Notes: generated from the sequence alone by a model not told the origin. 64,000 nucleotides of DNA from Candidatus Acetothermia bacterium (GCA_003562845.1 PWTL01000087.1:1216-65215); one strand, 5' to 3'; positions 15,227 through 36,434 are shown, numbered from the stretch's first letter. Made by a program: numbers and translations.

Positions 15227-15273
15227 TGCACAAGCAAGTCTACGCGTTCGGCGCAGGCGTGCAAGGCTGTAGT

Positions 15274-21528: not shown

Positions 21529-21586
21529 CCGGGCGCAGTCCTCTGACTGACGGCGGTCATGGGGAGGTGCTGCTGGGCCGGGTAGA

Positions 21587-22150
21587 TTGTCCGGTACCAT
21601 GCGACACGAGATCCGCTTTGCGGGATTCGGCGGCCAAGGGATTGTTTCTGCGGGTAGGATCACCGGTAACGCTGCTGTCATCCACGACGGCAAGCACGCG
21701 GTGTTGACCCAAAACTACGGACCGGAGGCCCGAGGCGGCGCTTGCGCTGCCGAGGTTGTAGTCTCCGAGGAGCCGGTCGACTATCCCCACATAACTCAGC
21801 CTGAGGCGCTGGTGATTATGTCTCAGGAGGCGTACGAGAAGTTCTCCTCACGGCTGCGAGAGGGCGGGATTCTCCTTCTGGACGAGGACCTCGTTGAGCA
21901 CCGGGAGCAACCCAATGTCAAGTTGGTCAAGGTTCCGGCCACTCGTATTGCCGAGTCCTTGGGCCGGAAGATTGTGGCCAACGTGGTCATGTTGGGCGCG
22001 CTGGCGGCGGTGTGGCCGGGAGTGTCCCGGGACGCTTTGCTCAACGCGGTATTGGGCTCGGTCCCCCCGCACACCAAGGACCTGAACAAGCGTGCATTCG
22101 ATGCTGGATACGAGCACGTTTCCCAGGAGGCCGTGCATGGCGCAGCCTAG
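21587..22150 (+). CDS. korC: 2-oxoacid:ferredoxin oxidoreductase gamma subunit
   Basis: IRFAGFGGQGIVSAGRI...LTQNYGPEARGG, the pattern typical of OFOR gamma subunits. 187 aa; ATG at 21599 is also possible. Its end overlaps the hdrA start by 14 nt. Confidence 0.8.
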   Translation: MSGTMRHEIRFAGFGGQGIVSAGRITGNAAVIHDGKHAVLTQNYGPEARGGACAAEVVVSEEPVDYPHITQPEALVIMSQEAYEKFSSRLREGGILLLDEDLVEHREQPNVKLVKVPATRIAESLGRKIVANVVMLGALAAVWPGVSRDALLNAVLGSVPPHTKDLNKRAFDAGYEHVSQEAVHGAA

Positions 22151-24110
22151 AATCGGCGTCTTTGTCTGCCACTGCGGGCGCAACATCGCCGGGACAGTGG
22201 ACGTGGAGGGGGTGACCGAGGAAGCATCCCGTATCCCGGGAGTGGTGCTCTCCACACATTATGATTACATGTGCTCCGACCCTGGGCAGGAGATGGTGGC
22301 TCGGGCTATCCGCGAGCACCGCCTGAACGGGGTTGTCGTGGCGGCCTGTTCACCGGGGATGCACGAGGAGACGTTCCGTCACGCGGCCCAAGCGGCAGGG
22401 CTCAACCCGTATCTGGTGGAGATGGCCAACATCCGGGAGCAGTGCTCCTGGGTGCACCGGGGGGCGGCGGCCACGGAAAAGGCGAGCCGCATCCTGGCCA
22501 CGGTGGTGGAGAAGGTTAGAGGGAATCTCCCCTTGGAGCCGTCCACGATGGGGCACTCCACGAAGTGCTTGGTCATCGGAGGGGGGGTAGCAGGAATTCA
22601 GGCCGCGCTGGACGTGGCCAACGCGGGGTACGAAGTGCTGCTTGTGGAGCGCTCCCCTTCCATAGGGGGGCGCATGGCCCAGCTTTCGGAGACGTTCCCC
22701 ACACTGGACTGCTCTCAGTGCATTCTCACCCCGAAGATGGTCGAGGTGGACCGGCACCCGAACATCAGGGTTCTTGCCAACTCGAAAATTGAAGAAGTGT
22801 CAGGGTTCGTTGGCAACTGGGACGTAAGAATCCGCAAGGGGGCCACCTATGTGGATCCGGACAAGTGCAACCTGTGTGGGGACTGCGTGGAGGCTTGTCC
22901 CGTACGGGTTCCTCATGAGTTCGAGGAAGGGTTGACGGAGAGAGCGGGCATCTACATCCCCTTCCCTCAGGCCATCCCGTCTTCTTATACGTTGGATGTG
23001 CAGTCGTGTTTAGGGTTGAAGCCCCTGCGGTGCAGTGAATGCGCTAAAGCGTGCGAGGCCGGTGCGATCAACTACGACATGCAGGACGAGCTTCTCGAGG
23101 AAGAGGTGGGAGCCATAGTTGTGGCCACCGGTTACGAGACACTGCCCAAGGCAGCTATGGCCGAGTACGGCTACGGTGAGATAGCAGACGTGATCTCCGG
23201 CCTGGAGTACGAACGGATGGCCAGCGCTTCCGGGCCCACGCAGGGAGAGATCCGCTGCCCTTCGGACGGTCGGGTCCCCAAGGAAGTTGTGTTCATCCAG
23301 TGCTCCGGCTCGCGGGACCCGGAGCTGTATAAGCCTTACTGCTCGAAGATCTGCTGCATGTACACGGCCAAACATGCGCTTCTCTACCGCCACTCAGTTC
23401 CTGACGGCCAGGCATACGTCTTCTACATCGACATCCGCGCTGGGGGGAAGGGCTACGAGGAGTTCGTGCAGAGGGTGATGGAGGAGGAGCGGATCCTCTA
23501 CCTCCGGGGCAAGGTGGCCAAGGTGTTCCAGGACGGAGACAAGGTAATGGTGTGGGGTGCGGACACCCTCACCGGGCGCCGGGTGGAGGTGGCAGCCGAT
23601 CTGGTAGTCTTGGCGCAAGCGGTCGTCCCCTCGCAGGGCGTGGTCGATCTGGCGAGAAAGCTGCGCGTGTCCGTCGACGAGCACGGGTTCCTCAAGGAGG
23701 CGCACCCCAAGCTACGGCCACTGGAGGCGCTGGCGGCAGGAGTGTTCCTGGCCGGAGCGGCCCAGGGCCCCAAGGACATCCCTGAGGCAGTGGGCCAAGG
23801 GTCGGGCGCTGCGGCCAAGGCTCTCATGCTGCTCAGTTCTCCTGAACTCGTTCACTCCCCGGAGATAGCGGAGGTGGCCGAACACCTGTGCTCGGCCTGC
23901 GGGATCTGCGCTCCGCAGTGCCCGTACGAAGCGATAACCGTTGAAGACACCGCTGTAGTGAACGAAATGCTGTGCGAGGGATGCGGGACGTGCGTTGCCG
24001 CCTGTCCCAGCGGAGCGATGAACCTGCGAAACCTGGCCGACAGCCAGGTTCTGGCCATGCTGCACGCGGCCCTGAAGGAGCACGAGGAAGCGGAGGTGCT
24101 CGGTGGCTGA
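22137..24110 (+). CDS. hdrA: Heterodisulfide reductase subunit A-like FAD/FeS flavoprotein
   Basis: ATG at 22137 lies 6 nt after AGGAGG. N-terminal Cys domain (VFVCHCGRNIAG...CSPG), FAD fold CLVIGGGVAGIQAALD, an inserted ferredoxin motif (CNLCGDCVEACP) and a C-terminal ferredoxin motif (CSACGICAPQCP, CEGCGTCVAACP). 657 aa. Confidence 0.88.
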   Translation: MAQPRIGVFVCHCGRNIAGTVDVEGVTEEASRIPGVVLSTHYDYMCSDPGQEMVARAIREHRLNGVVVAACSPGMHEETFRHAAQAAGLNPYLVEMANIREQCSWVHRGAAATEKASRILATVVEKVRGNLPLEPSTMGHSTKCLVIGGGVAGIQAALDVANAGYEVLLVERSPSIGGRMAQLSETFPTLDCSQCILTPKMVEVDRHPNIRVLANSKIEEVSGFVGNWDVRIRKGATYVDPDKCNLCGDCVEACPVRVPHEFEEGLTERAGIYIPFPQAIPSSYTLDVQSCLGLKPLRCSECAKACEAGAINYDMQDELLEEEVGAIVVATGYETLPKAAMAEYGYGEIADVISGLEYERMASASGPTQGEIRCPSDGRVPKEVVFIQCSGSRDPELYKPYCSKICCMYTAKHALLYRHSVPDGQAYVFYIDIRAGGKGYEEFVQRVMEEERILYLRGKVAKVFQDGDKVMVWGADTLTGRRVEVAADLVVLAQAVVPSQGVVDLARKLRVSVDEHGFLKEAHPKLRPLEALAAGVFLAGAAQGPKDIPEAVGQGSGAAAKALMLLSSPELVHSPEIAEVAEHLCSACGICAPQCPYEAITVEDTAVVNEMLCEGCGTCVAACPSGAMNLRNLADSQVLAMLHAALKEHEEAEVLGG

Positions 24111-24591
24111 GCTGAAGCACGAGCCGAAGATAGCAGCTTTTCTGTGCAGATGGTGTGCCTATGCCGGGGCGGACCTGGCGGGGACGAACCGCCTGGCCTA
24201 CCCCCCGAACATGATCCCCATTCGCGTGCCCTGCTCGGGCCGGGTGGAGCCGGCGTGGGTGATTGAAGCGCTTCGGTCGGGCGCTGATGGTGTGCTCATT
24301 GGAGGATGCCATCCGGGAGACTGCCACTACGTGTCCGGAAACTACAAGGCTCGTCGCAGGGTGGAGCTGTTGCGCGATGTGCTCGCTGGGCTCGGGGTGA
24401 ATCCGGCAAGGGTGAAGCTGGTGTGGGTATCGGCCTCCGAAGGGGTTCGCTTTGCCCAGGTGGTGCGTGACTACGTCGAGGAAATCCGTGGGTTGGGACC
24501 TAACCGGGGGGAATTCGGGGTCCCGGAAGAGGTAGACGACCGAGCAGGGCGCATTGCCCAGGCTGTGGAACAGGCGGTGAACCATGGCTAA
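24103..24591 (+). CDS. mvhD: Methyl-viologen-reducing hydrogenase delta subunit (MvhD)
   Basis: KIAAFLCRWCAYAGADLAG...IRVPCSGRV...GCHPGDCHY. GTG start overlaps the hdrA stop by 8 nt. Confidence 0.85.
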   Translation: MAELKHEPKIAAFLCRWCAYAGADLAGTNRLAYPPNMIPIRVPCSGRVEPAWVIEALRSGADGVLIGGCHPGDCHYVSGNYKARRRVELLRDVLAGLGVNPARVKLVWVSASEGVRFAQVVRDYVEEIRGLGPNRGEFGVPEEVDDRAGRIAQAVEQAVNHG

Positions 24592-25537
24592 GCCGAAGAT
24601 CGCCATGTACTGGACCGGAGGCTGCGGTGGGTGTGACGTTTCTCCGCTGGAGGTAGGGGAGGCAATCGTGGACGTCCTGTCTCAGGTGGAGATAGCTTTC
24701 TGGCCCGCGCTCATGGACGCCAAACGCGCTGACGTGGAGGCGCTGCCCGCCGGAGGCATCGACGTGGCGCTGATCAACGGTGCCCTGCGCACTGAAGATA
24801 ACGTGGAGATGGTCCGCCTTCTCCGGGAGAAGTCCAAGCTGGTGGTGGCTTACGGGGCCTGTGCGCACTTGGGGGGGATCATCGGGCTGGGCAATCTGCA
24901 CTCCGCGCAGTCGCTCGTGTCCACAGCGCTGGGTCCAGGCTGGCACGCGGGATCCCCTTCTTTCAGCGCGAACGGGGATGCACCACCACCCCTGACTGCT
25001 GGAGTAGTGCCCCTAGCGGACGTCATTGCTGTGGACTACGTGGTGCCCGGGTGCCCTCCGCCCGCCCAGCTGATCGGCCTCTTCTTCCAGACGCTTCTGG
25101 GAGGGGAGATGCCGAGCCCTGGCCATGTGTTTGCTGAGGAGAAGGCGCTCTGTGATCAGTGCCCGCGGGAGAAGGAAGATCGGCGCTTGGAGAAGTTCGT
25201 GCGCCCGCACGAGATGGAACCCGATCCCGACAGGTGCCTTCTGGACCAAGGGATAGTGTGCATGGGGCCGGTGACCAGGGGCGGGTGCGAGGCCGCTTGT
25301 CCCGCTTTGGGCATGCCCTGCACCGGCTGTGTTGGTCCGACCCGTAAGGCGGGGGACCTGGCTGGGGGCATGATCTCCGCATTGGCTTCTCTGGTCCGGG
25401 CCGGAGATGAAGGAGAGGACGCGTTCGCGCGAGAGGACGAGGTACTCGCCGGGCTAGTCGATCCGGTGGGGACCTTGTACAAGTACGCTCTGGCCACGAC
25501 TTGGAAGCGGCGCGAGACGGGAGGAGAAGACGCATGA
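24584..25537 (+). CDS. mvhG: [NiFe] hydrogenase small subunit (Mvh/group 3-like)
   Basis: N-terminus KIAMYWTGGCGGCDVS, then GACAHLGG and distal Cys clusters (CDQC, GCEAACP, CTGC). No Tat signal, so cytoplasmic. Overlaps mvhD by 8 nt. Confidence 0.85.
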   Translation: MAKPKIAMYWTGGCGGCDVSPLEVGEAIVDVLSQVEIAFWPALMDAKRADVEALPAGGIDVALINGALRTEDNVEMVRLLREKSKLVVAYGACAHLGGIIGLGNLHSAQSLVSTALGPGWHAGSPSFSANGDAPPPLTAGVVPLADVIAVDYVVPGCPPPAQLIGLFFQTLLGGEMPSPGHVFAEEKALCDQCPREKEDRRLEKFVRPHEMEPDPDRCLLDQGIVCMGPVTRGGCEAACPALGMPCTGCVGPTRKAGDLAGGMISALASLVRAGDEGEDAFAREDEVLAGLVDPVGTLYKYALATTWKRRETGGEDA

Positions 25538-26991
25538 GCGCAAAGAGGATTGCCATCGACCCCATCACGCGCCTGGAGGGACACGGAAAGATCCTCCTGT
25601 ACTTGGACGAGCAAGGCGGCCTCCAGGATGCGGTCCTCCAAGTCCCCGAGCTGCGGGGCTTCGAAAGGTTCTGCGTGGGGCGTCGGGGAGAGGAGATGCC
25701 GCAGATCACCGAGCGTATCTGTGGGGTGTGCCCGGAGGCGCATCACCTAGCCTCGGCCAAGGCGCTGGACGACGCATTCGGTGCACAGGTGCCCCAAGCA
25801 GCGCGGGCGCAGCGGGAGCTGTTCTACAACACGTACATTTTCTCCGACCATCTGCTGCATCTGGTGTTCCTCGGGGGACCGGACCTTCTGCTGGACGAGG
25901 ACACGCCGAAAGAACAGCGCAACGTGTTGGGCGTACTGCAGGCCTATCCCGAGCTGGGAAAGCGAGTGGTGAAGGTCCGCGCGGGCGCGCAGAAGCTGCT
26001 GGAGCTGGTGGGAGGACGCCCCATCCATCCGGTATTCGCCCTGCCCGGCGGGGTGTCCCAGCCGTTGAGCGAGGAGAAGGTCGAGGAGATACAGGCGTAC
26101 ACCAAGGCCATGCAGGAGCTGGCCGTGGACATGATCTCTTTCTTCCATGAGGAGGTCCTTCCCGATCCCGGCCTGCAGGCACTCCTTCTCTCCCCTGAGG
26201 CCCGCCTCCCCGTGCACTTCATGGGGCTTGTAGACGAGGAGCTGGCGCCCAACTTCTACGACGGCAAGCTGCGGGTTGTCTCCTGCGATGGGGAGGAGCT
26301 GTTCCTGGGGGACCCCCGCCAGGGATTGTCCCTGTTCGAGGAGCACAGCGAGCCGTGGACCTACGTCAAGTTCCCGTACCTCAAGCAGTTCGGATGGGCC
26401 GGGCTCAGGGCAGGGTCGGAGTCTGGGCTGTATCAGGTTGGCCCCTTGGCCCGCCTCAACGTGGCCGAGAAAATGGCTACCCCGGCCGCTCAGGAGGAGT
26501 TCGAGCGCTTCTTCGACTACTTCGACGAGCGGCCGGTGCACGCCACGTTCGCCTATCACTGGGCACGCTTGGTGGAGATGGTCCAGGCCGCCGAGGCGGC
26601 CCACGCGCTCGCTTTCGACAAGAGCCTCACCGGGCGCGATGTGCGGGGGAAACTATCCGCTCCCGGGGAGGGGATCGGGGTAATCGAAGCCGCCCGGGGC
26701 ACGTTGTTTCACGAGTACAAGCTGGACGAACAGGGCCTGATGAAGCATGTGAACTTGGTAGTGGCCACCACGCACAACGCCGGACCGATCAGCATGTCGG
26801 TGAAGGCGATGGCCGAGGCTGCTGTGCGACAGGGGGACCTGGACGAGCGTTTGCTGAACAGAGTGGAAATGGCTTTCCGCGCTTACGATCCCTGCCTGGC
26901 TTGTGCCACTCATTTCCTGCCCGGGGAGCTCCCGCTTCAAGTGGAGGTGTACGGACCCGATGGGACTGTCCTGCGGCGCGTCCGGCGCTGA
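25534..26991 (+). CDS. mvhA: [NiFe] hydrogenase large subunit (Mvh/group 3-like)
   Basis: ITRLEGHG, N-terminal Ni ligands RICGVCPEAHH, C-terminal ligands DPCLACATH followed by a 25-aa cleavable tail. ATGA overlap with the small-subunit gene. Confidence 0.9.
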   Translation: MSAKRIAIDPITRLEGHGKILLYLDEQGGLQDAVLQVPELRGFERFCVGRRGEEMPQITERICGVCPEAHHLASAKALDDAFGAQVPQAARAQRELFYNTYIFSDHLLHLVFLGGPDLLLDEDTPKEQRNVLGVLQAYPELGKRVVKVRAGAQKLLELVGGRPIHPVFALPGGVSQPLSEEKVEEIQAYTKAMQELAVDMISFFHEEVLPDPGLQALLLSPEARLPVHFMGLVDEELAPNFYDGKLRVVSCDGEELFLGDPRQGLSLFEEHSEPWTYVKFPYLKQFGWAGLRAGSESGLYQVGPLARLNVAEKMATPAAQEEFERFFDYFDERPVHATFAYHWARLVEMVQAAEAAHALAFDKSLTGRDVRGKLSAPGEGIGVIEAARGTLFHEYKLDEQGLMKHVNLVVATTHNAGPISMSVKAMAEAAVRQGDLDERLLNRVEMAFRAYDPCLACATHFLPGELPLQVEVYGPDGTVLRRVRR

Positions 26992-26992
26992 C

Positions 26993-27580
26993 GTGGCGGT
27001 GGTAGGCATGGGCAATCCGTACTGCACGGACGACGGTGTCGGGGTCTCCGTAGTGCGGTCTTTGCCTCCCCGGGAGAACGTCGAGGTGTGGGAGACGGTG
27101 CAAGGGGGGGCGTATCTTGCGCAAACCTTGCTCGGGTATTCCCGCGTCCTCCTTGTGGACGCCGCTCCGTCCCTCCCTCCGGGAGAAGTTCGCCTGCAGC
27201 CCCTGTCCGCGTGGGAGGCCCTCGGTGGGGAGAGGAGAGGTGCCCACGGGCTGAGCCTGACGCAGGCTTTGGAGATGTTGCGGGCCCTGTCCGGCGGGGA
27301 CACCTCGGATGCAGGGTGCGACGTTGCCCTGGGTGATCAGCGTCGCACACAAGGTGCGACGCTACACCAGCCTGAGCGTAGCGTCGGAGCTTGTCTCCGA
27401 CGTGGTGAAGCGTCGCAGACGAGCTGCGACGCTACGGATGTGGGGTTGAAGGTCCCCGAGGTGTGGGCATTGGCCATTGGGGTTCCCCCGGATCCGCCAT
27501 TCGGCGAAGGGCTATCGCCCCGGGTTGCGGCGGCCGTGCCGGCTGCCGTGGAGGAGGTGAGGGGATGGCTGACCAGGTGA
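26993..27580 (+). CDS. Hydrogenase maturation endopeptidase (HycI/FrhD/HoxW family) carrying a ~41-codon insertion
   Basis: GTG at 26993, 1 nt after the mvhA stop. VAVVGMGNPYCTDDGVGV and VLLVDA are protease motifs. The C-terminal part (PEVWALAIGV...GLSPRV) is separated from LEMLRALSGG by a segment encoded by palindromic repeats. Confidence 0.75.
   Translation: MAVVGMGNPYCTDDGVGVSVVRSLPPRENVEVWETVQGGAYLAQTLLGYSRVLLVDAAPSLPPGEVRLQPLSAWEALGGERRGAHGLSLTQALEMLRALSGGDTSDAGCDVALGDQRRTQGATLHQPERSVGACLRRGEASQTSCDATDVGLKVPEVWALAIGVPPDPPFGEGLSPRVAAAVPAAVEEVRGWLTR
27316..27437. repeat. Intragenic cluster of four REP-like palindromic units
   Basis: Four hairpins: GTGCGACG/CGTCGCAC (27316-23 / 27341-48), CGACGCTAC/GTAGCGTCG (27357-65 / 27378-86), CGTCGGAG-cttgt-CTCCGACG (27382-27402) and GCGTCGCAG-acgag-CTGCGACGC (27410-27432), followed by TACGG. 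The same stems recur at 56917-57046. Confidence 0.65.
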
Positions 27581-27966
27581 GATTGTCAAAGGTTGCGCTG
27601 TCGGCGGACTTCGCCCGGCGGGTGGAAGAGCTGTCGGGGCAGTCCCCTTACCGCTGCTATCAATGTGGTAAGTGTGGGGCGGGGTGCCCCTTCGCCGAGT
27701 ACATGGATCTTCTGCCCAGCCAGGTGCTGCGCCTTGTGCAGATTGGAGATGAGAGGGTATTGGACGCCGGCGCTCCGTGGAGCTGCGCCTCGTGTCTCGC
27801 CTGCGAGGTGCGTTGTCCGCGCGGCGTGGACATCGCCAAGGTGATGGAGGCGGTGCGGCTCCTGTCGCTGCGCAAGGGGAGAACGCCGTTCGCAGTGGAC
27901 GAGGCGGCGTCCCGCAGGTTGCCGCAGATTGCCCTTGTGGGGATCACCAGGAAGATGACACCATGA
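27565..27966 (+). CDS. hdrC: Heterodisulfide reductase subunit C-like 4Fe-4S protein
   Basis: ATG at 27565. Two cluster motifs, CYQCGKCGAGCP and CASCLACEVRCP. 133 aa, overlapping the protease end by 16 nt. Confidence 0.8.
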   Translation: MADQVRLSKVALSADFARRVEELSGQSPYRCYQCGKCGAGCPFAEYMDLLPSQVLRLVQIGDERVLDAGAPWSCASCLACEVRCPRGVDIAKVMEAVRLLSLRKGRTPFAVDEAASRRLPQIALVGITRKMTP

Positions 27967-28841
27967 ACACCATTTTGTACTACCCGGGGTGCGGAGTAGC
28001 CGATCAGGCCCGCAGTATGGAGAAAGGTGCACGCGAGGCCCTTACGGCCTTGGATTGGGAGATGCAGGAGATGTCACGTTGGAATTGTTGCGGGACTGTC
28101 TACTCATTGGCTACAGACGACCTGATGCGTCACGTGGGCCCGGCACGAGTGCTTGCCCGAGCCCAAGACGCGGGCCAGGAGAGGCTGCTCACTCTTTGTT
28201 CTATGTGCTACAGCACCCTGAAGCGCTCCGAGCAGTTTCTAACAGCTGACCGGGAGCGCTTGGACAGGGTGAACGCTTTTCTCGACGACGAACCTGACTA
28301 CCGGGGAGGATTGCGCGTCGTGCACCTGCTGGAGCTTCTGCGGGATGAGATTGGCTACGAGGCCGTGCAAGAGCGGGTGGTGCGCCCTCTACAGGGGCTG
28401 AAGGTGGCTCCGTATTATGGCTGTACGTTGACCAGGCCCCGCGCAGCAGGAGTGGACGACCCCGAGCGGCCGACGGTGTTGGAGGATCTGCTGACGGCGC
28501 TGGGGGCGGAAGCGGTGGCCACCGCGGAGCGCGTGGAGTGCTGTGGAGCATACCTGACGGCTAGCTCCCCCGATGTTGCCCGCCGTCGAGCTGTGGACAT
28601 CGCGCGGGCGGCAATCGCCGGTGGTGCGGAGTTGATGATAACTAGCTGCCCCCTGTGCCAGTACAACTTGGACACGCGCCTGGCGGAGGCGCGAGGCTCC
28701 AGCGATCTGCGTGTTCCCAGTGTGTACTTCACGCAGCTTCTTGCGCTTGCGCTGGGGGGCGATCCCGCTGTAGAGGAACACGAGATAGATCCCTTGCCGG
28801 TGCTGGCGGCTCGGGGCCTGTCGGTGGAGGTGAAAGCATGA
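27963..28841 (+). CDS. hdrB: Heterodisulfide reductase subunit B-like protein (two CCG domains)
   Basis: ATGA overlap with hdrC. Two CCG-domain signatures: YYPGCG...WNCCGT...CSMCY and YYGCT...VECCGA...CPLCQ. 292 aa. Confidence 0.85.
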   Translation: MNTILYYPGCGVADQARSMEKGAREALTALDWEMQEMSRWNCCGTVYSLATDDLMRHVGPARVLARAQDAGQERLLTLCSMCYSTLKRSEQFLTADRERLDRVNAFLDDEPDYRGGLRVVHLLELLRDEIGYEAVQERVVRPLQGLKVAPYYGCTLTRPRAAGVDDPERPTVLEDLLTALGAEAVATAERVECCGAYLTASSPDVARRRAVDIARAAIAGGAELMITSCPLCQYNLDTRLAEARGSSDLRVPSVYFTQLLALALGGDPAVEEHEIDPLPVLAARGLSVEVKA

Positions 28842-29521
28842 GCGCCGAGCTAGAGATGATCCGTGTATACATAATGGGACGGGCCTATGAGGTTCCCGCC
28901 GGCCTGACGATCATGAAGGCCATGGAGTACGCGGGGTACCGGCTTGTGCGGGGGGTGGGCTGTCGGGGAGGCTTCTGTGGCGCCTGCGCGACAGTGTTCC
29001 GCCGGCCTGGCGATTACAAGCTGTACGCAGACCTTGCCTGCCAGACCACGGCCGAGGACGAGATGTACATCGCCCAGATTCCGTCGGTGCCTGCCGAGAG
29101 GGCACCGTGGAAGCTATCAGAGTTGGAGCCGGAGGAGAATTTCATTCTAGCTCTGTACCCCGAGGTGGCGCGTTGTGTGGCCTGCAACACCTGCAGCCGG
29201 GCCTGCCCCCAGGAACTCGAGGTGATGGACTACATCCAAGCCGCGCTGCGAGGCGATATCGCGCAGGTGGCTGAGCTTTCCTTTGACTGTGTGCAGTGTG
29301 GGTTGTGTGCGATGCGCTGCCCGGCGGAGATCGTGCACTACCACGTGGGACAGTTGGCGCGGAGAGTGTACGGGGCCTATCGGGCGCCTCAGGCTGGGCA
29401 CCTGGCGGCCAGGGTGGAAGAGATCGAAAGCGGCACCTTCGACCAGGAGCTGGACACGCTCCAGCAGATGTCGAGAGACGAGCTGGTGGAGGCTTACCGC
29501 AAGCGCGACGTGGAGAAATAG
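28838..29521 (+). CDS. Succinate dehydrogenase/fumarate reductase iron-sulfur subunit-like protein
   Basis: ATGA overlap with hdrB. N-terminal 2Fe-2S-type motif GCRGGFCGACATV...LAC, then CVACNTCSRACP and CVQCGLCAMRCP. 227 aa. Confidence 0.7.
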   Translation: MSAELEMIRVYIMGRAYEVPAGLTIMKAMEYAGYRLVRGVGCRGGFCGACATVFRRPGDYKLYADLACQTTAEDEMYIAQIPSVPAERAPWKLSELEPEENFILALYPEVARCVACNTCSRACPQELEVMDYIQAALRGDIAQVAELSFDCVQCGLCAMRCPAEIVHYHVGQLARRVYGAYRAPQAGHLAARVEEIESGTFDQELDTLQQMSRDELVEAYRKRDVEK

Positions 29522-29530
29522 GAGGCGAAG

Positions 29531-31189
29531 GTGGCAGACGCATATCCCAGCAGCATGCGGGAGTCCATCGGGCGGGTGGAGGCCACCCGGCCGCAGCGGA
29601 TGGGAGTGGAGCCCCAGCGCCTCTCTTTGGAGGAGCGGAGGGAAGTCCTGGATCAGTTCCACCCCGACTACAAGGAAGAGGGCAAGAGGGCGTTGGCGGT
29701 AGGTCCTTCCAAAGGGGAGTTGGTGCCCCACGAGATGGCGGACCTCCTGGAAGCGTATCCTCTGATCGACCCGGATAGGGTGGACCTGGGGCAGGCCGAC
29801 TACGAGGTCGACGTGCTCGTAATCGGCGGCGGCGGCGGGGGGACTGTTGCTGCGCTGTGGGCAAATGAAGCGGGGATCCCCGCGGGGCGGATCTTGATTG
29901 CTACCAAGTTGAGGCATGGCGATTCCAACTCCATGATGGCCCAGGGGGGGATCCAGGCGGCAGACAAGGAGAACGATAGTCCTCCCATTCACTACCTGGA
30001 CGTGCAGGGAGGGGGGCACTTCGGAAACGATCCGGAACTCGTGCGGGCGCTGGTCAGCGACGCTCCGGAGGTCCTCCGCTGGCATGAGAAGCTGGGAGTG
30101 ATGTACGATAAGGACCCCGAGGGCCGTATGCTGACCATTCACGGCGGGGGCACGTCCCGCAAGCGGATGCACTCGGCCAAGGACTACACGGGGATGGAGA
30201 TCATGCGCGTCCTGCGGGACGAGGCTCTGGGGCGGGGGATACCCACCGTCGAGTTCTCCCCGGTTGTAGAGCTGATCAGTGACGACAAAGGACAAGTCGT
30301 CGGGGCCGTGCTGTGGAACATGGAGACGGAGGAGTACAGCGTGGTGCGGGCCAAGGCGACTGTTCTGGCCACCGGCGGTTGGGGGAGACTGCACATTCAG
30401 GGGTTCCCCACCTCCAACCACTACGGAGCCACCGCAGACGGCCTGGTGTTGGCCTATCGAGCGGGCGCGGGGTTGCGGGACCTGGACTCGGTGCAGTACC
30501 ACCCCACTGGCGCGGCGTTCCCCGAGCAGATCGTGGGGCTGCTCATCACGGAGAAAGTGCGGGGCATGGGCGCGCAGCCGGTGAATGTGGAAGGGGAGCT
30601 CTTCGTGCACCCGCTTGAGCCGCGTGATGTGGAGTCGGGGGCGTTCATCCGCGAGTGCTCCTCGCCCGAGCAAGGGGGCCGGGGACGCGGTGTCGTCACG
30701 CCCACGGGGATGATCGGGATCTGGCTGGACACGCCGATGGTCGATCTGATCCACGGACAGGGAACGTTCAACCGGGAGCTGTCCGCGATCTGGCGAATGT
30801 ACGCTCGGTTCGACATCGACCCGTCTGCGGACCCGGTGCTAACCTATCCCACGCTGCACTACCAGAACGGCGGGGTAGTCATAGACGCAGATGGGGCAAC
30901 GCAGGTGCCGGGTCTGTTCGCCGGCGGGGAAGTCTCTGGAGGGATTCACGGGAAGAACCGGCTGATGGGGAACTCCCTTCTAGACTTCAACGTGTTCGGC
31001 CGGCGCGCCGGGATAGCCGCAGCCAAGTGGGCCCAGCGATCCAAGCCGGGGAAGCCCACCCTCGAACACGCCTTGCGGTATACCCAGGATCTGCAGGCGG
31101 CGGGAGTGGAAGAGGTGCGCAAGGCTCCCTCGCTGCTCCCCGAATATAGGGGGAAGAAGACCCTTGCCCGGGTGGTGGACTTGATATGA
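29531..31189 (+). CDS. Fumarate reductase/succinate dehydrogenase-family flavoprotein (soluble, non-covalent-FAD type)
   Basis: GTG lies 6 nt after AGGAGG. FAD fold VDVLVIGGGGGGTVAAL, then VQYHPTG, LITEKVRGMGA, HYQNGGV and GKNRLMGNSLLDFNVFGRRAG. DSNSMMAQGG occupies the site of the SdhA/FrdA RSHTVxAQGG motif, so the FAD-linking His is Asn. About 90 aa of N-terminal extension precede the FAD fold. Confidence 0.75.
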   Translation: MADAYPSSMRESIGRVEATRPQRMGVEPQRLSLEERREVLDQFHPDYKEEGKRALAVGPSKGELVPHEMADLLEAYPLIDPDRVDLGQADYEVDVLVIGGGGGGTVAALWANEAGIPAGRILIATKLRHGDSNSMMAQGGIQAADKENDSPPIHYLDVQGGGHFGNDPELVRALVSDAPEVLRWHEKLGVMYDKDPEGRMLTIHGGGTSRKRMHSAKDYTGMEIMRVLRDEALGRGIPTVEFSPVVELISDDKGQVVGAVLWNMETEEYSVVRAKATVLATGGWGRLHIQGFPTSNHYGATADGLVLAYRAGAGLRDLDSVQYHPTGAAFPEQIVGLLITEKVRGMGAQPVNVEGELFVHPLEPRDVESGAFIRECSSPEQGGRGRGVVTPTGMIGIWLDTPMVDLIHGQGTFNRELSAIWRMYARFDIDPSADPVLTYPTLHYQNGGVVIDADGATQVPGLFAGGEVSGGIHGKNRLMGNSLLDFNVFGRRAGIAAAKWAQRSKPGKPTLEHALRYTQDLQAAGVEEVRKAPSLLPEYRGKKTLARVVDLI

Positions 31190-31482
31190 CCGCGCACAGG
31201 ACACGCGAGATCAAGCGGTGGAAGGTGCCCAAAGGGCGGGTTTGTGTGCAGGATGATCTGTGCAAGGGCTGTGGCTTCTGCATCGATTTCTGCCCCAAAG
31301 ACGTGCTTTCCGCCGCCAGCCACTACAACGTCAAGGGGTACCACCCCCCGGAGCTCGTGGACCCCGAGGAGTGCATCATGTGCCGCTTCTGCGAGCTGAT
31401 CTGTCCGGACTTCGCTATCTGGACCGAGCAGCCCGACCAAGAAGGACAGGAACAAGAGGAGGAGGATCAGGATGCCGGGTAA
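31186..31482 (+). CDS. korD: 2-oxoacid:ferredoxin oxidoreductase delta (ferredoxin-like) subunit
   Basis: CKGCGFCIDFCP and CIMCRFCELICP; acidic C-terminal tail. ATGA overlap with the flavoprotein gene. Confidence 0.75.
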   Translation: MTAHRTREIKRWKVPKGRVCVQDDLCKGCGFCIDFCPKDVLSAASHYNVKGYHPPELVDPEECIMCRFCELICPDFAIWTEQPDQEGQEQEEEDQDAG

Positions 31483-32614
31483 GGCAGTGCTGTCCGGCGT
31501 GCATTTCATGAACGGGGACGAGGCCATCGCCGAAGGGGCTCTGGCTGCCGGCTGCCGTTTCTTCGCCGCCTACCCGATCACCCCGCAGTCGGAGATCGCC
31601 GAGCGACTGGCCGCGCGCCTGCCGCGTATCGGCGGTGTGTTCATACAGATGGAGGATGAGCTGGCGGCTATGGCCGCCGTGGTCGGGGCGGCGTGGGGGG
31701 GAGACAAGGCGATGACGGCCACCTCCGGCCCCGGCTTCTCCCTGATGATGGAGAATCTGGGACTGGCTGTTATGACTGAGACACCGTGCGTAGTGGCCAA
31801 CGTACAGCGGGCGGGCCCGTCTACCGGACTCCCCACGGCCGTGGGCCAGGGGGACATGATGCAGGCTCGCTGGGGGTCTCATGGGCACTATGAACTCATC
31901 GCCCTCTGCCCGTACTCCCCGCAGGAGGCGTTCGACCTCACGGTGCGCGCCTTCGCCCTGGCCGAGAGGTTTCGCAGCCCCGTGCTCATCATGACCGACG
32001 AAGTGGTGGGGCACATGTACGAGAAGGTGGAGATACCCGCTGAGGTGGTGGAAGCTCGTCGGCGTACTCCGCAGGTTCCCCCGGAGGGATTCCTTCCGTA
32101 CAAACCCGATGAGGATTTGGTGCCCCCTATGGCCTGCGCCGGCGAAGGGTACCGCATTCACGTCACCGGGCTGACCCACGACGAACGCGGCTACCCGGAC
32201 ATGTCCGCCGACGCACAAGACAGGCTCGTGCGTCGGCTGTGTGAGAAGATAAAGCGCTACCCTGATGAGTACACACTTTGGGAAGAGCACTCCCTGGAAG
32301 ACGCGGACGTGGCAGTGATCTCCTACGGCATCTCCGCGCGGGTGGCGTTGGGAGCCGTGGAGCTGGCCCGCAAGAAGGGGATCAAGGCCGGACTGCTCAG
32401 GCTCATCACCACGTGGCCGTTCCCGAATGAGGTCGTGCGCTCGCTCGCTGAGCGAGTGCAGGGGATGGTGACCGTGGAGATAAACCTCGGCCAGATGTCG
32501 CGTGAGGTGGAACGCGCTGTGCAGGGCAAAGTCCCCCTGGGAGGAGTGTATCATGCCGGGGGGCGCATACACCGGCCCGAAGAAGTGTTGGCTGGGATAG
32601 AGGAAGTGATTTGA
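31472..32614 (+). CDS. korA: 2-oxoglutarate/2-oxoacid:ferredoxin oxidoreductase alpha subunit
   Basis: NGDEAIAEGALAAGCRFFAAYPITPQSEI, FIQMEDELAA (Kor-type rather than the Por ESEHSA motif), TATSGPGFSLM and RAGPSTGLPT. Confidence 0.85.
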   Translation: MPGKAVLSGVHFMNGDEAIAEGALAAGCRFFAAYPITPQSEIAERLAARLPRIGGVFIQMEDELAAMAAVVGAAWGGDKAMTATSGPGFSLMMENLGLAVMTETPCVVANVQRAGPSTGLPTAVGQGDMMQARWGSHGHYELIALCPYSPQEAFDLTVRAFALAERFRSPVLIMTDEVVGHMYEKVEIPAEVVEARRRTPQVPPEGFLPYKPDEDLVPPMACAGEGYRIHVTGLTHDERGYPDMSADAQDRLVRRLCEKIKRYPDEYTLWEEHSLEDADVAVISYGISARVALGAVELARKKGIKAGLLRLITTWPFPNEVVRSLAERVQGMVTVEINLGQMSREVERAVQGKVPLGGVYHAGGRIHRPEEVLAGIEEVI

Positions 32615-33486
32615 TGCCGGTAAAGGAGAAGAAGCAGGCTCCACCTCCTGAAATCGCTCAGGGTCGGCACCCCATGGAGAAGTACCTGCGGACCGACCGC
32701 ATCCCCCACATCTGGTGTGCGGGATGTGGCCTGGGGACGACCGTGTCCAGTTTTCTCTACGCGATGGACAATCTGGGGTTGGATCCCGATTCCGTTGCAG
32801 TTATCTCTGGGATCGGCTGCACGGGCCGAGTGGCGGGCTACGTCCGCATGGATTCGTACCATACGACACACGGCCGGCCGATCCCGTTCGCCACGGGGCT
32901 GAAGCTGGCCAAACCCGATATGAAGGCAGTGGTGTTCTCCGGCGACGGGGACCTGTTTGCCATCGGTGGGAACCACTTCATCCACGCTGCGCGGCGCAAC
33001 CTGGACATCAACGTAATTTGCGTGAACAACCTGAACTACGGGATGACGGGAGGACAGGCGGGGCCGACCACTCCGCTTGGTGGTCGCTGCACCACCTCCC
33101 CGTACGGAAACTTCGAGCACCCGTTCAACCTCGTATACCTCGCCGCCTCGGCCGGCGCCCCGTACGTAGCCCGCTGGACGAGCCTGGATGTACGGAGACT
33201 ACAGCGAGCCATCGAGGAGATGCTGGTCCGTAAAGGGTTCGCCTTCCTGGAGATCATCGCCCCCTGCCCCACGAACTACGGGCGGCGCAACAAGCTCGGC
33301 GAGGGCCTCGACGAACTGCGCTACTACGCGGAGCACGCCGTGATCGAACACGGCGCCGATCCTGCGGACACGGAAATCCTCCCCGGGAAAGACTTCCTCG
33401 TGGGCAAGTTCGTCGACGAGGAGGAACCGACCTACTGGGAGATGTACCAGGACAAGGTGGCGGAATTGGAAGGGGGCAGACGGTGA
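32611..33486 (+). CDS. korB: 2-oxoglutarate/2-oxoacid:ferredoxin oxidoreductase beta (TPP-binding) subunit
   Basis: WCAGCGLG, GIGCTGR and the TPP motif GDGDLFAIGGNHFIHAARRNLDINVICVNNLNYGMTGGQ. ATGA overlap with korA. Confidence 0.85.
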   Translation: MMPVKEKKQAPPPEIAQGRHPMEKYLRTDRIPHIWCAGCGLGTTVSSFLYAMDNLGLDPDSVAVISGIGCTGRVAGYVRMDSYHTTHGRPIPFATGLKLAKPDMKAVVFSGDGDLFAIGGNHFIHAARRNLDINVICVNNLNYGMTGGQAGPTTPLGGRCTTSPYGNFEHPFNLVYLAASAGAPYVARWTSLDVRRLQRAIEEMLVRKGFAFLEIIAPCPTNYGRRNKLGEGLDELRYYAEHAVIEHGADPADTEILPGKDFLVGKFVDEEEPTYWEMYQDKVAELEGGRR

Positions 33487-34343
33487 GCGGCACGCTGACC
33501 AACGCGGTGAGTGAGGCCTTGGGCAGGGCGGCCACAGCACTGCCGACGGACGTGGTGCGGGCATTGGAGGCTGCCCGCGATAGGGAAAGCGGGCCGGCCC
33601 GCGTACAGCTCGAGGCCATTTTGCGGAACGTGAACGTGGCCCGGGAGGGCGCGGTGCCCATCTGTCAGGACACAGGGACCGTGACTTACTTTGTGAAGTT
33701 TGGAGTGCGCTTTCCCCGGCTCGCGGAGCTCCGGGAGGTGTTGGAGGCCGCCACTCGCAGCGCAACGGAGACAGTCCCCCTACGGCCGAACACGGTACAT
33801 CCGTTCACTGGGGCCAACCCGGGGGACAACACAGGGGAGTACATCCCTGCGGTGACGTGGGAGCCAGTGGACGGGGACGAGGCCGAAGTGCACATCCTGC
33901 CCAAAGGAGGCGGTTCGGAGAACTGCTCAGCACTGAAGATGCTCACCCCGTCTGCGGGGATGAAGGGCGTCCTGGAGGCAGTGGCGGACCACGTCGTGTC
34001 CCGGGAGGGAAAGCCCTGCCCCCCCACCGTGATCGGCGTAGGGATCGGGGGGGGAGCGGACATGGCGCTGAAGCTGGGCAAGCGGGCCCTGCTGCGGCCC
34101 GTGGGAACCCGACACCCGGAACCGGAGGTGGCCCGGCTCGAGGAACAGCTGGAGAGGCTGATCAACGCCTCTGGAGTGGGCCCCATGGGCCTCGGTGGGG
34201 AAACGACAGTGCTGGCCGTGCACGTGGAGTACGCGCACCGCCATCCGGCATCTCTCCCCGTGGGGATAGTTGTCCAGTGCTGGGCCGATAGACGAGCGGC
34301 CTTGCGTATCGGGCCTGACGGCAGCGTAACGACGATTGGATGA
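33483..34343 (+). CDS. Class I (Fe-S) fumarate hydratase alpha subunit (fumarase/tartrate dehydratase family)
   Basis: VPICQDTGT, ILPKGGGSEN and CPPTVIGVGIGGG. 286 aa, with a 4-nt overlap with korB. Confidence 0.85.
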   Translation: MSGTLTNAVSEALGRAATALPTDVVRALEAARDRESGPARVQLEAILRNVNVAREGAVPICQDTGTVTYFVKFGVRFPRLAELREVLEAATRSATETVPLRPNTVHPFTGANPGDNTGEYIPAVTWEPVDGDEAEVHILPKGGGSENCSALKMLTPSAGMKGVLEAVADHVVSREGKPCPPTVIGVGIGGGADMALKLGKRALLRPVGTRHPEPEVARLEEQLERLINASGVGPMGLGGETTVLAVHVEYAHRHPASLPVGIVVQCWADRRAALRIGPDGSVTTIG

Positions 34344-34395
34344 GTTCCTTGGGTTCCTTAGGGTTTGTGGGGACTGGGGGACTGGGAGGTGAACG

Positions 34396-34983
34396 ATGGA
34401 CAAAGTGCTGACCACCCCCATCGCTGAGCGCGACGTGCGGGAACTGCGTGTTGGTGATGTATTCTACGTCTCCGGAAGAATGTTCACCGCGCGGGACGCG
34501 GCGCACGAGATGATGCTCGAACGCGGGGCGCCGCTTCCGGTAGAGGGAATTCCGGTCTTCCACTGTGGGCCGGTGGTGCGCAAAACCGGCGCGGGGTGGG
34601 ATCTCCTCGCCGGCGGGCCTACTACCTCGGTGCGCATGGAGGGGCTGGAGGGGGACTTCCTGCGCAAGTTTCATCCCCGGGTCATCGTGGGGAAGGGGGG
34701 CATGGGAGAGAAGACGTTGGCCGCCCTATCAGAGGTGGGCGCTGTGTACACCCACTTCACCGGCGGGGCGGGAGCGTTGGCCGCCCAAGCAGTGAGCAAG
34801 GTGGAGGAAGTGTACTGGCTGGAGGAACTGGGTATTCCCGAGGCGATTTGGGTTCTTCAGGTAGAGAAGTTCGGACCGCTGGTGGTCACGATGGACTCCC
34901 ACGGACGTAGCCTGCACAGCGAGCTTGCCGCCAAGGTTGCCGAGAACATGAAGCGGGCCAAGGCGCAGTTCTTGAGCGAGTGA
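34396..34983 (+). CDS. Class I fumarate hydratase beta subunit
   Basis: VSGRMFTARDAAH, GPTTSVRME, GKGGMG and THFTGGAGA. 195 aa. Confidence 0.85.
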   Translation: MDKVLTTPIAERDVRELRVGDVFYVSGRMFTARDAAHEMMLERGAPLPVEGIPVFHCGPVVRKTGAGWDLLAGGPTTSVRMEGLEGDFLRKFHPRVIVGKGGMGEKTLAALSEVGAVYTHFTGGAGALAAQAVSKVEEVYWLEELGIPEAIWVLQVEKFGPLVVTMDSHGRSLHSELAAKVAENMKRAKAQFLSE

Positions 34984-34999
34984 ACGAAAGAGGAGGAGC

Positions 35000-36358
35000 A
35001 TGGAACCGCGTAAGCCTAGCGTAGAGGAGCTGTTGAACAAGGCCAAGGAACCGGCACGTAAAGCCCCCGCATGGCACGCTCATTACCGGGGAAAAGTGTC
35101 CGTGGCCCTGAAGTGCGCTATCACCGACTACCAGGATTTCGGGATCTGGTACACGCCTGGAGTGGCCCAGCCATGCCGGGAAATAGCCGAGGACCCGGAG
35201 AAAGTGTTCCAGTACACCAACAAGGGGAACTTTGTCGCCGTCGTCTCCGACGGGACGCGCGTGTTGGGATTGGGGGATATTGGCCCACAGGCCGCCCTTC
35301 CGGTGATGGAGGGGAAGGCCCTGTTGTTCAAGTACTTGGGCGGAGTGGATGCGTTCCCGGTGACCGTGGACACCAAGGACCCCGACGAACTCATCCGCAC
35401 CGTCAAGCTCATCGGACCGGCGTTCGGGGGTGTGAACCTGGAGGACATCGCCAGCCCCAAGTGTTTCCGCGTGCTGGACGAGCTGCGCCGGGAGATGGAT
35501 ATCCCCGTGTGGCACGATGACCAGCAAGGCACAGCCTCCATCACCTTGGCCGGAGTGCTGAACGCGCTGAAAGTGGTGGGAAAGGATCCCACGCGGGCCA
35601 CCTACGCTGTGATCGGTTCTGGTGCTGCGAACATCGCCTTCGTGCGGGTCCTCCTTACGTACGGAGTTCCCGCCGGCAACGTGATCATGGTCGACTCTAA
35701 GGGAATCCTGGAGCCGGGCCGGGAGGACCTGGAGCGGGGCAAGGAGGACAATCCCTACAAGTGGGATTACGCGCAGCGTACCAACGCCGAGCGTCGCAGG
35801 GGGGGCATGGCCGAGGCCTTGCAGGGCGTGGATGTTTGTGTGGCAGCCTCCAAGTCGGGTCCCGATGTGATCAATCCCGAGTGGATTCGAGGCATGGCCA
35901 AGGACGCGGTGGTGTTCGCCTGTGCCAACCCCGTTCCCGAAATTTGGCCCTGGGAGGCGGAGGAGGCGGGGGCGAGGGTCATCGGCACTGGACGCTCCGA
36001 CTTCGCCAATCAGATCAACAACTCCCTTGGTTTCCCGGGAATCTTCCGCGGGACGCTCGACGTGTTCGCCCGCACTATTACCGATGAGATGGCCATCGCC
36101 GCCGCTGAAGCCATCGCCCGCACCGCCGAAGAGAAGGGCCTGTCGGAAACGTACATCGTCCCCACGATGATGGAGTGGGAGGTGTACATCAACGTAGCAG
36201 TGGATGTGGCCCTGAAGGCCATCGAGCAGGGAGTAGCCCGCCGGGAACTCTCCAAGAGCCAACTCGAGGAGCGGGCGGCACAGGTGATCAAGCACGCGCG
36301 GCAGGAGACGGAGATTCTGATGAAGCAAGGACATATCTCTCAGCCGCCGAACGTGTGA
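35000..36358 (+). CDS. NAD(P)-dependent malic enzyme (short form)
   Basis: YTPGVAQPC, VSDGTRVLGLGDIGPQAALPVMEGKALLFK, NLEDIASPKCF and the dinucleotide fold VIGSGAANIA. 452 aa. Confidence 0.88.
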   Translation: MEPRKPSVEELLNKAKEPARKAPAWHAHYRGKVSVALKCAITDYQDFGIWYTPGVAQPCREIAEDPEKVFQYTNKGNFVAVVSDGTRVLGLGDIGPQAALPVMEGKALLFKYLGGVDAFPVTVDTKDPDELIRTVKLIGPAFGGVNLEDIASPKCFRVLDELRREMDIPVWHDDQQGTASITLAGVLNALKVVGKDPTRATYAVIGSGAANIAFVRVLLTYGVPAGNVIMVDSKGILEPGREDLERGKEDNPYKWDYAQRTNAERRRGGMAEALQGVDVCVAASKSGPDVINPEWIRGMAKDAVVFACANPVPEIWPWEAEEAGARVIGTGRSDFANQINNSLGFPGIFRGTLDVFARTITDEMAIAAAEAIARTAEEKGLSETYIVPTMMEWEVYINVAVDVALKAIEQGVARRELSKSQLEERAAQVIKHARQETEILMKQGHISQPPNV

Positions 36359-36434
36359 GGCTTGTCGGCACCGGGTGCAAGAGCCGTCCCCGGCGGTGTC
36401 TCAGGGCTCCTTGTACCCGGACGTGCCTGCGCTG

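Follow-up and report, generated by a model that had tools for sequence, protein, structure and literature searches.

A sixteen-gene cluster in an uncultured Acetothermia bacterium encodes a candidate electron-bifurcating H2:fumarate/ferredoxin oxidoreductase

Genes for heterodisulfide reductase (HdrABC) and its partner hydrogenase (MvhADG) have been annotated in numerous non-methanogens without coenzymes M and B (CoM and CoB). The question of the real electron acceptor in these organisms has stayed open; in genome papers the Hdr acceptor is usually shown as CoM-S-S-CoB or left blank. In methanogens, the MvhADG–HdrABC complex (PDB 5ODC) uses the exergonic reduction of the heterodisulfide (∼−140 mV) to drive the reduction of ferredoxin. 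Here we describe sixteen consecutive plus-strand open reading frames (ORFs) at positions 21587–36358 of a 64-kb stretch of DNA (the window) from an uncultured Bipolaricaulota/Acetothermia bacterium, in which the genes for such a complex are joined by those for a soluble fumarate-reductase-like pair, a four-subunit 2-oxoacid:ferredoxin oxidoreductase (OFOR), a fumarase and a malic enzyme. The best explanation, to which we assign a probability of about 0.6, is that the sixteen genes constitute one operon for a soluble, modular HdrA-type electron-bifurcating H2:fumarate/ferredoxin oxidoreductase that would feed a 2-oxoglutarate-type OFOR.

Several described enzymes share parts with this locus. 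Classical complex II (quinol:fumarate and succinate:quinone reductases) has a flavoprotein with the same dicarboxylate-binding and proton-delivery residues. Its type E relatives and MFR (SdhABE) carry a subunit with HdrB-like CCG domains and a second [4Fe-4S] cluster in place of [3Fe-4S]. Hydrogenobacter possesses a soluble NADH-fumarate reductase, FrdABCDE. Thiol:fumarate reductase (TfrAB) of Methanothermobacter (Heim et al. 1998) is likewise a soluble flavoprotein combined with a [2Fe-2S]/[4Fe-4S] iron–sulfur (FeS) subunit that bears an HdrB-type CCG domain.

Closest in gene composition are clusters reported from genomes. In tubeworm symbionts and Thioflavicoccus, flxABCD-hdrABC is interleaved with korABCD and tfrAB, and the encoded complex was proposed to bifurcate directly to 2-oxoglutarate:ferredoxin oxidoreductase (OGOR) and fumarate reductase (Rubin-Blum 2019, PMC6315080); co-expression of such a cluster was shown in Endoriftia (Mitchell 2024, PMC11636981), and a 2026 survey repeats the Hdr-fumarate reductase-OGOR proposal. 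Like our locus, these clusters intersperse Hdr genes with those for an OGOR of four subunits and a soluble fumarate reductase of two, but the donor is NADH via FlxABCD rather than H2 via MvhAG, and the genes are set in a full reductive tricarboxylic acid (rTCA) cluster with ATP-citrate lyase. In Ca. Celaenobacter (Cloacimonadota), a cluster of thiol:fumarate reductase, OGOR, fumarase, succinyl-CoA synthetase, group 3c Mvh and Hdr was likewise taken to be functionally linked (Williams 2021, PMC8542988). Its parts list, including the H2 donor, is essentially the one found here; however, it belongs to another phylum, has succinyl-CoA synthetase where our locus has malic enzyme, and was interpreted via a CoM-S-S-CoB-type heterodisulfide within an autotrophic rTCA cycle. 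Thus, in having co-located and co-oriented genes for Hdr, a donor module, fumarate reductase and a four-subunit OGOR, the present locus matches published clusters, to which we liken it by gene composition. A preliminary description of the locus knew of no characterised enzyme system with such a composition in one operon; as a claim to novelty this was overstated, since Rubin-Blum 2019 and Williams 2021 describe such clusters as genomic hypotheses. That no enzyme system of this kind has been characterised still holds: we found no purification or assay of any member in the literature. The concept is thus already published as a genomic hypothesis, to which the locus adds a further case.

The sixteen genes are as follows, with profile scores in brackets.

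21587–22150, plus strand: OFOR gamma subunit (Pfam POR 125 bits; best NCBIfam match PRK08537, 211 against a cutoff of 235; alternative ATG at 21599)
22137–24110, plus strand: HdrA (NCBIfam HdrA2 804 bits over residues 5–652, cutoff 1100; Pfam Fer4 and Pyr_redox_2; 29 Cys; GGGVAG motif)
24103–24591, plus strand: MvhD, FlpD-domain electron-transfer subunit (Pfam FlpD 180 bits, full length)
24584–25537, plus strand: [NiFe]-hydrogenase small subunit, MvhG/VhuG-like (Pfam Oxidored_q6; NCBIfam VhuG 208 bits)
25534–26991, plus strand: [NiFe]-hydrogenase large subunit, MvhA/VhuA-like, group 3 (NCBIfam VhuA 342 bits; PDB matches and motifs)
26960–27580, plus strand: hydrogenase maturation endopeptidase (TIGR00072 78 bits, cutoff 47; start from the public gene call)
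27565–27966, plus strand: HdrC with two 4Fe-4S sites (TIGR03290 62 bits; two CX2CX2CX3CP motifs)
27963–28841, plus strand: HdrB (two Pfam CCG domains; NCBIfam SdhE 141 and HdrB 138 bits; PDB matches)
28838–29521, plus strand: FeS subunit of the fumarate-reductase-like pair (weak Fer2/Fer2_4, Fer4 dicluster; TfrB N-terminal match of 34 bits)
29531–31189, plus strand: soluble fumarate-reductase-like flavoprotein (FAD_binding_2 222 bits; best NCBIfam match TfrA, 283 against a cutoff of 718)
31186–31482, plus strand: OFOR delta subunit, ferredoxin-like with two 4Fe-4S sites (best NCBIfam match OGOR_delta, 62 bits; two CX2CX2CX3CP motifs)
31472–32614, plus strand: OFOR alpha subunit (NF006412 560 bits, cutoff 411; PDB matches)
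32614–33486, plus strand: OFOR beta subunit, thiamine pyrophosphate-binding (TPP_enzyme_C; best NCBIfam match 2-oxoglutarate ferredoxin oxidoreductase beta, 254 bits)
33483–34343, plus strand: class I fumarate hydratase alpha subunit (Pfam Fumerase 307 bits; NF004885 313, cutoff 276)
34396–34983, plus strand: class I fumarate hydratase beta subunit (Fumerase_C 137 bits; TIGR00723 185, cutoff 145)
35000–36358, plus strand: malic enzyme, NAD(P)-dependent, without PTA domain (Pfam malic and Malic_M; NCBIfam NADP-malic enzyme subfamily 336 bits)

The ORF listing of the window and the Pfam/NCBIfam profile matches, which back the identity of every gene, agree with the order and assignments given in the preliminary description. 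Using the gene calls for identical DNA in GCA_003567155.1 (contig PXAG01000044.1), adjacent genes overlap by 1–32 nt at 12 of the 15 junctions and are separated at the other three by 9, 16 and 52 nt. The earlier count of 11 overlaps and three small gaps in addition to the 52-nt spacer was correct for the spacer and differs otherwise only through the choice of start codon for the protease and OFOR beta. Most starts are preceded by GGAGG-like ribosome-binding sites. A scan of positions 19000–38500 revealed eight terminator-like sites against 9.8 expected from shuffled sequence and one promoter-like site against 2.9, so that internal terminators or promoters that might break up the cluster, as the preliminary description had considered, do not exceed the shuffled expectation; the scan neither splits the cluster nor proves an operon. 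The arrangement of the sixteen genes is far beyond chance. The sole sizeable internal spacer, the 52 nt between the fumarase genes (34344–34395), contains two short direct repeats, GTTCCTTRGG and GGGGACTGG, each present twice, and neither a hairpin nor a T-run was found within it.

The public contig PXAG01000044.1 begins at window position 21668, inside the OFOR gamma gene, and its first gene is truncated there. The window extends 21.6 kb upstream of this point with the frame intact and so comes from a longer assembly of the same organism. We considered a chance juxtaposition or an assembly chimera at this contig end and rejected the idea because the OFOR gamma reading frame and its profile match run unbroken across 21668.

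The hydrogenase and Hdr subunits have the cofactor motifs of their methanogen counterparts, six subunit types being common to both complexes. The large hydrogenase subunit carries the Ni-Fe motifs RICGVCPEAH (residue 61) and DPCLACATH (residue 452), followed by a C-terminal tail of 25 amino acids for cleavage by the co-encoded protease. Among PDB entries it matches the NiFe subunit of the bifurcating HydABCSL enzyme best (7t2r_D, 367 bits) and MvhA next (5odc_F, 348 bits); VhuA is its best NCBIfam match, at 342 bits against an equivalog cutoff of 800, and all Hdr and Mvh NCBIfam scores lie far under the methanogen equivalog cutoffs. The gene for MvhD/FlpD adjoins that for HdrA, HdrA has a flavin adenine dinucleotide (FAD) site and multiple 4Fe-4S motifs, HdrC has two [4Fe-4S] motifs and HdrB two CCG domains; HdrA is presumed to be the bifurcating flavoprotein. 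In HdrB both CCG motifs and CXXC are complete, twice each, so that the non-cubane cluster motifs are complete. SdhE is its top NCBIfam match (141 bits against a cutoff of 500), and methanogen HdrB its best match in the PDB (98–124 bits). What sets the locus apart from the methanogen complex is its bacterial host, the lack of a link to methanogenesis and the FeS-flavoprotein pair encoded directly after HdrB. The maturation protease is longer than its family profile (∼206 versus ∼145 amino acids), with an insertion of ∼45–60 residues in mid-protein; two related Bipolaricaulota loci (L012 and L023) align across the insertion and a third (L018) aligns at the two ends only.

The flavoprotein is a member of a distinct, highly conserved family of ∼550 amino acids with the FrdA/SdhA fold. 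It scores under the cutoff of every curated equivalog, namely TfrA (NF004900, 283 of 718), SdhA/FrdA (263 of 567) and L-aspartate oxidase (NF005867, 249 of 639; TIGR00551 nadB, 243 of 453), and its alignment to the TfrA model covers positions 6–417 of 546, i.e. the FAD and capping parts only. It is thus not equivalog-level similar to TfrA over the full length. The usual C-terminal SdhA domain is missing, as Succ_DH_flav_C (PF02910) gave no match, and the N terminus has a conserved extension of 90 amino acids. When the protein is aligned with FrdA of E. coli and flavocytochrome c3 of Shewanella, residues H324, T340, E341, R344, R365, H443 and R477 correspond to H232, T244, E245, R248, R287, H355 and R390 of FrdA, so that every fumarate-binding and proton-delivery residue is present. 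Asn133 occupies the position of His44 of E. coli FrdA, to which FAD is covalently attached. Across 18 archaeal and bacterial homologs the catalytic residues and Asn133 do not vary, nor does a large part of the N-terminal extension. Mutants of His44 in E. coli FrdA and of His90 in yeast Sdh1, whose FAD is no longer covalently bound, still reduce fumarate but cannot oxidise succinate. Taken with this precedent, the Asn at the covalent-FAD position points to a noncovalently bound FAD and hence to a preference for the reductive direction. An AlphaFold2 model built from an alignment of the 18 sequences is of moderate quality (pLDDT 68.6, pTM 0.73, with active-site loops of low confidence) and was therefore used for fold assignment only; Foldseek returned E. 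coli FrdA and then mycobacterial SdhA as top matches (TM 0.62–0.63). The earlier label "FrdA-like" is accordingly supported by the fold and the catalytic residues, though not by the C-terminal domain or the covalent-FAD His, and in these last two features the protein departs from classical complex II.

The partner FeS subunit (227 amino acids) has a CX4CX2C motif and two CX2CX2CX3CP motifs, implying one [2Fe-2S] and two [4Fe-4S] clusters. Its TfrB match (34 bits) is confined to the N-terminal 2Fe-2S part, and it lacks a CCG domain; the CCG domains are encoded separately in HdrB. TfrB, by comparison, fuses the FeS and CCG parts, and here HdrC is present in addition. The HdrC-HdrB-FeS-flavoprotein set looks like what would in effect be a thiol:fumarate reductase divided over separate proteins, with its CCG domain in common with Hdr. 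The operon contains no membrane-anchor gene and no gene for a quinone site, unlike classical complex II, and it likewise departs from the type E enzymes in the absence of membrane association or quinone and in the SdhE score of HdrB. By a crude test, no clearly hydrophobic stretch of 19 residues occurs in any of the sixteen proteins; mean hydropathy peaks at 1.82, in OFOR gamma.

The OFOR is complete in its four subunits, with POR_N/PFOR_II, TPP_enzyme_C, POR and Fer4 dicluster domains found. OFOR alpha passes the generic 2-oxoacid:acceptor oxidoreductase model NF006412, and in the PDB it matches 1yd7 at 406 bits, 2-oxoglutarate synthase (8ys5) at 276 and pyruvate:ferredoxin oxidoreductase at 60. 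The best reading of these scores is an enzyme of the 2-oxoglutarate (KOR) type, and the neighbouring succinyl-CoA synthetase genes in 10–12 related loci (see below) support this specificity. Both fumarase subunits score over their curated cutoffs for a class I two-subunit fumarate hydratase, and the alpha subunit stays below that for tartrate dehydratase TtdA (244 versus 365).

To place the flavoprotein among its relatives, its family was scanned with one genome per species, which gave at least 597 matching stretches, and the proteins of the window were compared by tblastn with the best 80 of these. All 80 loci come from metagenome-assembled genomes and span many archaeal and bacterial phyla. 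The flavoprotein itself is 100% identical to one database entry, 74–89% identical to proteins named from Candidatus Bipolaricaulota/Acetothermia and ∼65% identical to proteins of Thermoplasmata, Methanofastidiosia, Theionarchaea, Thermococci and Thor- and other Asgard archaea. The neighbours of the flavoprotein gene in the 80 loci were as follows.

FeS subunit: 78
HdrC: 61
HdrB: 60
HdrA: 51
MvhD: 38
OFOR: 35–36
MvhA: 24
fumarase: 19
malic enzyme: 11

Nearly all tblastn matches (534/560) lie on the strand of the flavoprotein, and among the 27 loci with at least 8 kb on either side HdrA was found in 23, HdrBC in 22 and OFOR in 16. Two other Bipolaricaulota loci (L012 and L018) have exactly the same sixteen-gene order, and an Anaerolineae metagenome-assembled genome (L040) has it without the fumarase and malic enzyme genes, with protein identities of 49–81%. 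In Thermoplasmata the order is OFOR-dabg-HdrA-MvhDGA-HdrCB-FeS-flavoprotein, and Methanofastidiosia and Theionarchaea have a bare HdrC-HdrB-FeS-flavoprotein unit; in Thermoplasmata, Heimdallarchaeota, Chloroflexota and Bipolaricaulota, OFOR genes lie immediately beside the Hdr-Frd genes or among them. When the remaining ORFs of the loci were clustered, the beta subunit of succinyl-CoA synthetase (SucC) was found in 12 loci and the alpha subunit (SucD) in 10; glutamate dehydrogenase is a neighbour in four loci, and five carry HdrC-HdrB fusions. This conserved co-location across phyla and both domains strongly supports the functional link that had been drawn from Mvh/Hdr and the fumarate-reductase-like pair to OFOR, fumarase and malic enzyme, and the recurrent succinyl-CoA synthetase and glutamate dehydrogenase genes strengthen it further.

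FlxABC-like genes occupy the hydrogenase position in a Heimdallarchaeota locus (L056, 3044–5927) and an Eubacteriales one (L030, 6182–9177). In each, a trio coding for a Fer4 protein, a Fer4_22 protein and a NAD_binding_1/FAD_binding_6/DHODB-FeS protein lies between MvhD and HdrA or the FeS gene; judged by these domains, the two loci represent an NAD(P)H-donor variant with an Flx-like module in place of MvhGA. Since the same core carries an Flx-like module in other lineages, the electron donor is exchangeable, and the recurrent fumarase, SucCD, OFOR, malic enzyme and glutamate dehydrogenase neighbours mean that the neighbourhood spells out a path of pyruvate, malate, fumarate, succinate, succinyl-CoA and 2-oxoglutarate (and glutamate) around an exchangeable donor module. 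Eight Thermoplasmata loci (L022, L024, L029, L036, L037, L045, L048 and L065) show two consecutive HdrA matches by tblastn, of ∼45% and ∼33% identity, which suggests that they carry a tandem or duplicated HdrA.

From the identities, motifs, conservation and co-location of the genes we infer complex formation, an electron path, its direction and its substrate. The high-potential couple would be fumarate/succinate in place of the heterodisulfide; at +33 mV (PMC5861303) against −414 mV for H2, fumarate is a better acceptor than CoM-S-S-CoB. MvhA would oxidise H2, and the electrons would reach the HdrA-bound FAD by way of MvhG and MvhD. From there, one electron would travel downhill through HdrC, the two non-cubane clusters of HdrB and the [4Fe-4S]/[2Fe-2S] chain of the FeS subunit to the noncovalent FAD of the flavoprotein, where fumarate would be reduced to succinate. 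The other would move uphill through the ferredoxin domains of HdrA to ferredoxin or directly to OFOR delta, and the low-potential electrons would drive the reductive carboxylation of succinyl-CoA to 2-oxoglutarate by the KOR-type OFOR. Per fumarate, one succinate and one reduced ferredoxin would be formed, a 1:1 stoichiometry that matches the two following steps, and fumarase and malic enzyme would join the module to malate and pyruvate. As already proposed in the preliminary description, the best reading is that fumarate serves as the high-potential acceptor, on account of the conserved co-location, the catalytic residues and Asn133; that electrons pass directly with no thiol in between, which way the flux runs and that OFOR is coupled to the complex are what we infer beyond it. 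That malic enzyme and fumarase supply the fumarate, as was also proposed, is consistent with the locus, but an oxidative route from 2-oxoglutarate to pyruvate is equally consistent.

Several observations weigh against bifurcation to fumarate as just set out. Malic enzyme is normally decarboxylating. The 2-oxoglutarate-specific NCBIfam models are the best matches for OFOR and yet remain under cutoff (alpha 365 of 579, beta 254 of 364, delta 62 of 125). A sequence search of the PDB with the FeS subunit gave no SdhB or FrdB, only generic 2x[4Fe-4S] ferredoxin-domain matches, so that the "FrdB-like" label holds for the cysteine motifs, the weak Fer2 matches and the context, but finds no counterpart in the PDB. 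HdrB keeps a complete disulfide-reductase-type active site, which leaves room for a thiol/disulfide intermediate. In 13 of the 80 loci the FeS-flavoprotein pair stands alone with no Hdr within reach, and Hdr is thus not an obligatory partner. Finally, succinyl-CoA synthetase has no gene in the 64-kb window, nor does any other tricarboxylic acid cycle gene occur there. The genome check that had been suggested for succinyl-CoA synthetase, citrate-cleaving enzymes and CoM/CoB biosynthesis covered the window, in which we found none of these and no Mcr genes.

The same complex could run in reverse, OFOR oxidising 2-oxoglutarate in amino-acid or glutamate fermentation and Hdr confurcating electrons from ferredoxin and succinate to H2 at MvhA, or to NAD(P)H in the Flx variants; succinyl-CoA would yield succinate and ATP, and fumarase and malic enzyme would take fumarate to pyruvate. 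This fits the presence of malic enzyme rather than a carboxylase and malate dehydrogenase, the recurrence of glutamate dehydrogenase and SucCD as neighbours, and the many host lineages that are predicted peptide fermenters. An oxidative KOR-SucCD-TfrA-Fum-MaeA route has been proposed for Culexarchaeia (PMC9723716), and a 1:1 ratio of ferredoxin to succinate suits confurcation equally well. Energetically, however, standard values give a mean donor potential of ∼−230 mV (from +33 and ∼−500 mV), far above the −414 mV of H+/H2, so that this direction would need H2 near 0.1 Pa or a high temperature. Moreover, characterised homologs require covalent FAD for succinate oxidation, and the invariant Asn replaces the His that would bind it. 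We regard reversal as unlikely, if by no means far-fetched. A lower likelihood still attaches to two enzymes linked by a diffusible thiol, as in Methanothermobacter, where Mvh-HdrABC would reduce ferredoxin and a disulfide (of a small thiol cofactor or a DsrC-like protein) and the FeS-flavoprotein pair, together with an HdrB-type site, would reoxidise the thiol with fumarate. TfrAB works in this manner (Heim et al. 1998); Williams 2021 and, in part, Rubin-Blum 2019 draw their clusters so, and HdrB, with both CCG motifs complete, is closest in the PDB to genuine methanogen HdrB. The operon nevertheless has a single HdrB, and since the FeS subunit itself lacks a CCG domain, a separate thiol:fumarate reductase would be impossible unless HdrB is shared. 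In addition, bacteria are not known to make CoM or CoB, and HdrBC-like modules serve as plain electron conduits in GlpC, GlcF, LutA and SdhE.

The FeS-flavoprotein pair might also act on another substrate, as an aspartate-oxidase-like enzyme or a different enoate or dicarboxylate reductase, or the cluster might reflect mere co-regulation of separate enzymes. The sub-cutoff scores of the flavoprotein against all curated equivalogs would allow this, as would its odd architecture, with an N-terminal extension and a missing C-terminal domain, and the 13 loci without Hdr; L-aspartate oxidase, besides, has the same catalytic residues. Set against this are the fumarate- and succinate-specific neighbours (fumarase, SucCD and KOR-type OFOR) that recur across phyla, the FeS partner in 78/80 loci, which NadB does not have, and the best sequence and structure matches, which are to SdhA/FrdA and not NadB. 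Another substrate or mere co-regulation is in our estimation quite improbable. The loci with the pair alone, lacking Hdr, Mvh and OFOR in reach (L020, L032, L039, L041, L046, L053 and others), occur in particular in WOR-3 and unclassified bacteria; three of them (L032, L041 and L046) share other neighbours, including an MTHFR-like gene.

The sixteen-gene cluster is flanked by unrelated housekeeping genes. Upstream lie an IclR regulator, an ABC ATPase, a TauE exporter, a PfkB fragment and a nucleotidyltransferase; downstream are RmuC, a ManC/PGI-like gene, an O-antigen-ligase/TPR protein, SecA and an hrcA-grpE-dnaK-dnaJ operon. The PfkB-kinase ORF (20515–21528 region) matches profile positions 178–294 of 302, i.e. 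the C-terminal third, and is probably what is left of a gene; after it, directly upstream of the operon, comes the small NTP_transf_2 nucleotidyltransferase gene. The region 12657–15600 contains dnaA (13452–14789, minus strand) and a DciA-domain gene (12657–13316, minus strand), and there the GC skew changes sign and the cumulative skew reaches its minimum. Since dnaA coincides with the change of sign, the region is probably the chromosomal replication origin, which would place the operon ∼7 kb from it, on the leading strand.

A wider proposal, which we put forward as speculative, is that fumarate, reached via HdrCB-FeS-flavoprotein, serves as the general high-potential HdrA acceptor in a substantial share of the anaerobes that are not methanogens (Bipolaricaulota, Chloroflexota, Thermoplasmata, Bathyarchaeia, Asgard archaea and others) and that the four-subunit OFOR is docked on the complex without free ferredoxin. 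If true, this would amount to a CO2-fixing supercomplex, driven by H2 or NAD(P)H and leading from fumarate to 2-oxoglutarate, comparable to the Fmd-Hdr-Mvh/Fdh megacomplex of methanogens.

According to genome papers on Acetothermia, no fumarate reductase is annotated there; Hdr-Mvh is seen as a means of recycling H2, or Hdr is connected with MetVF. Work on Asgard archaea has called on CoM/CoB thiols while voicing doubts. What is new here is a distinct flavoprotein family with an invariant Asn, its very wide distribution, and the counts showing that Hdr, OFOR, fumarase, succinyl-CoA synthetase and exchangeable Mvh/Flx modules travel with it. The locus and its relatives in at least 597 genome stretches give a testable answer to the question of the Hdr acceptor for one large subset of organisms, namely fumarate. 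If bifurcation to fumarate is correct, it would explain why the Acetothermia papers report "no fumarate reductase", because the flavoprotein is annotated merely as "FAD-binding protein". Exergonic fumarate reduction would then pay for the low-potential electrons that carboxylate succinyl-CoA, and these organisms would conserve energy from fumarate reduction without quinones or cytochromes, building 2-oxoglutarate.

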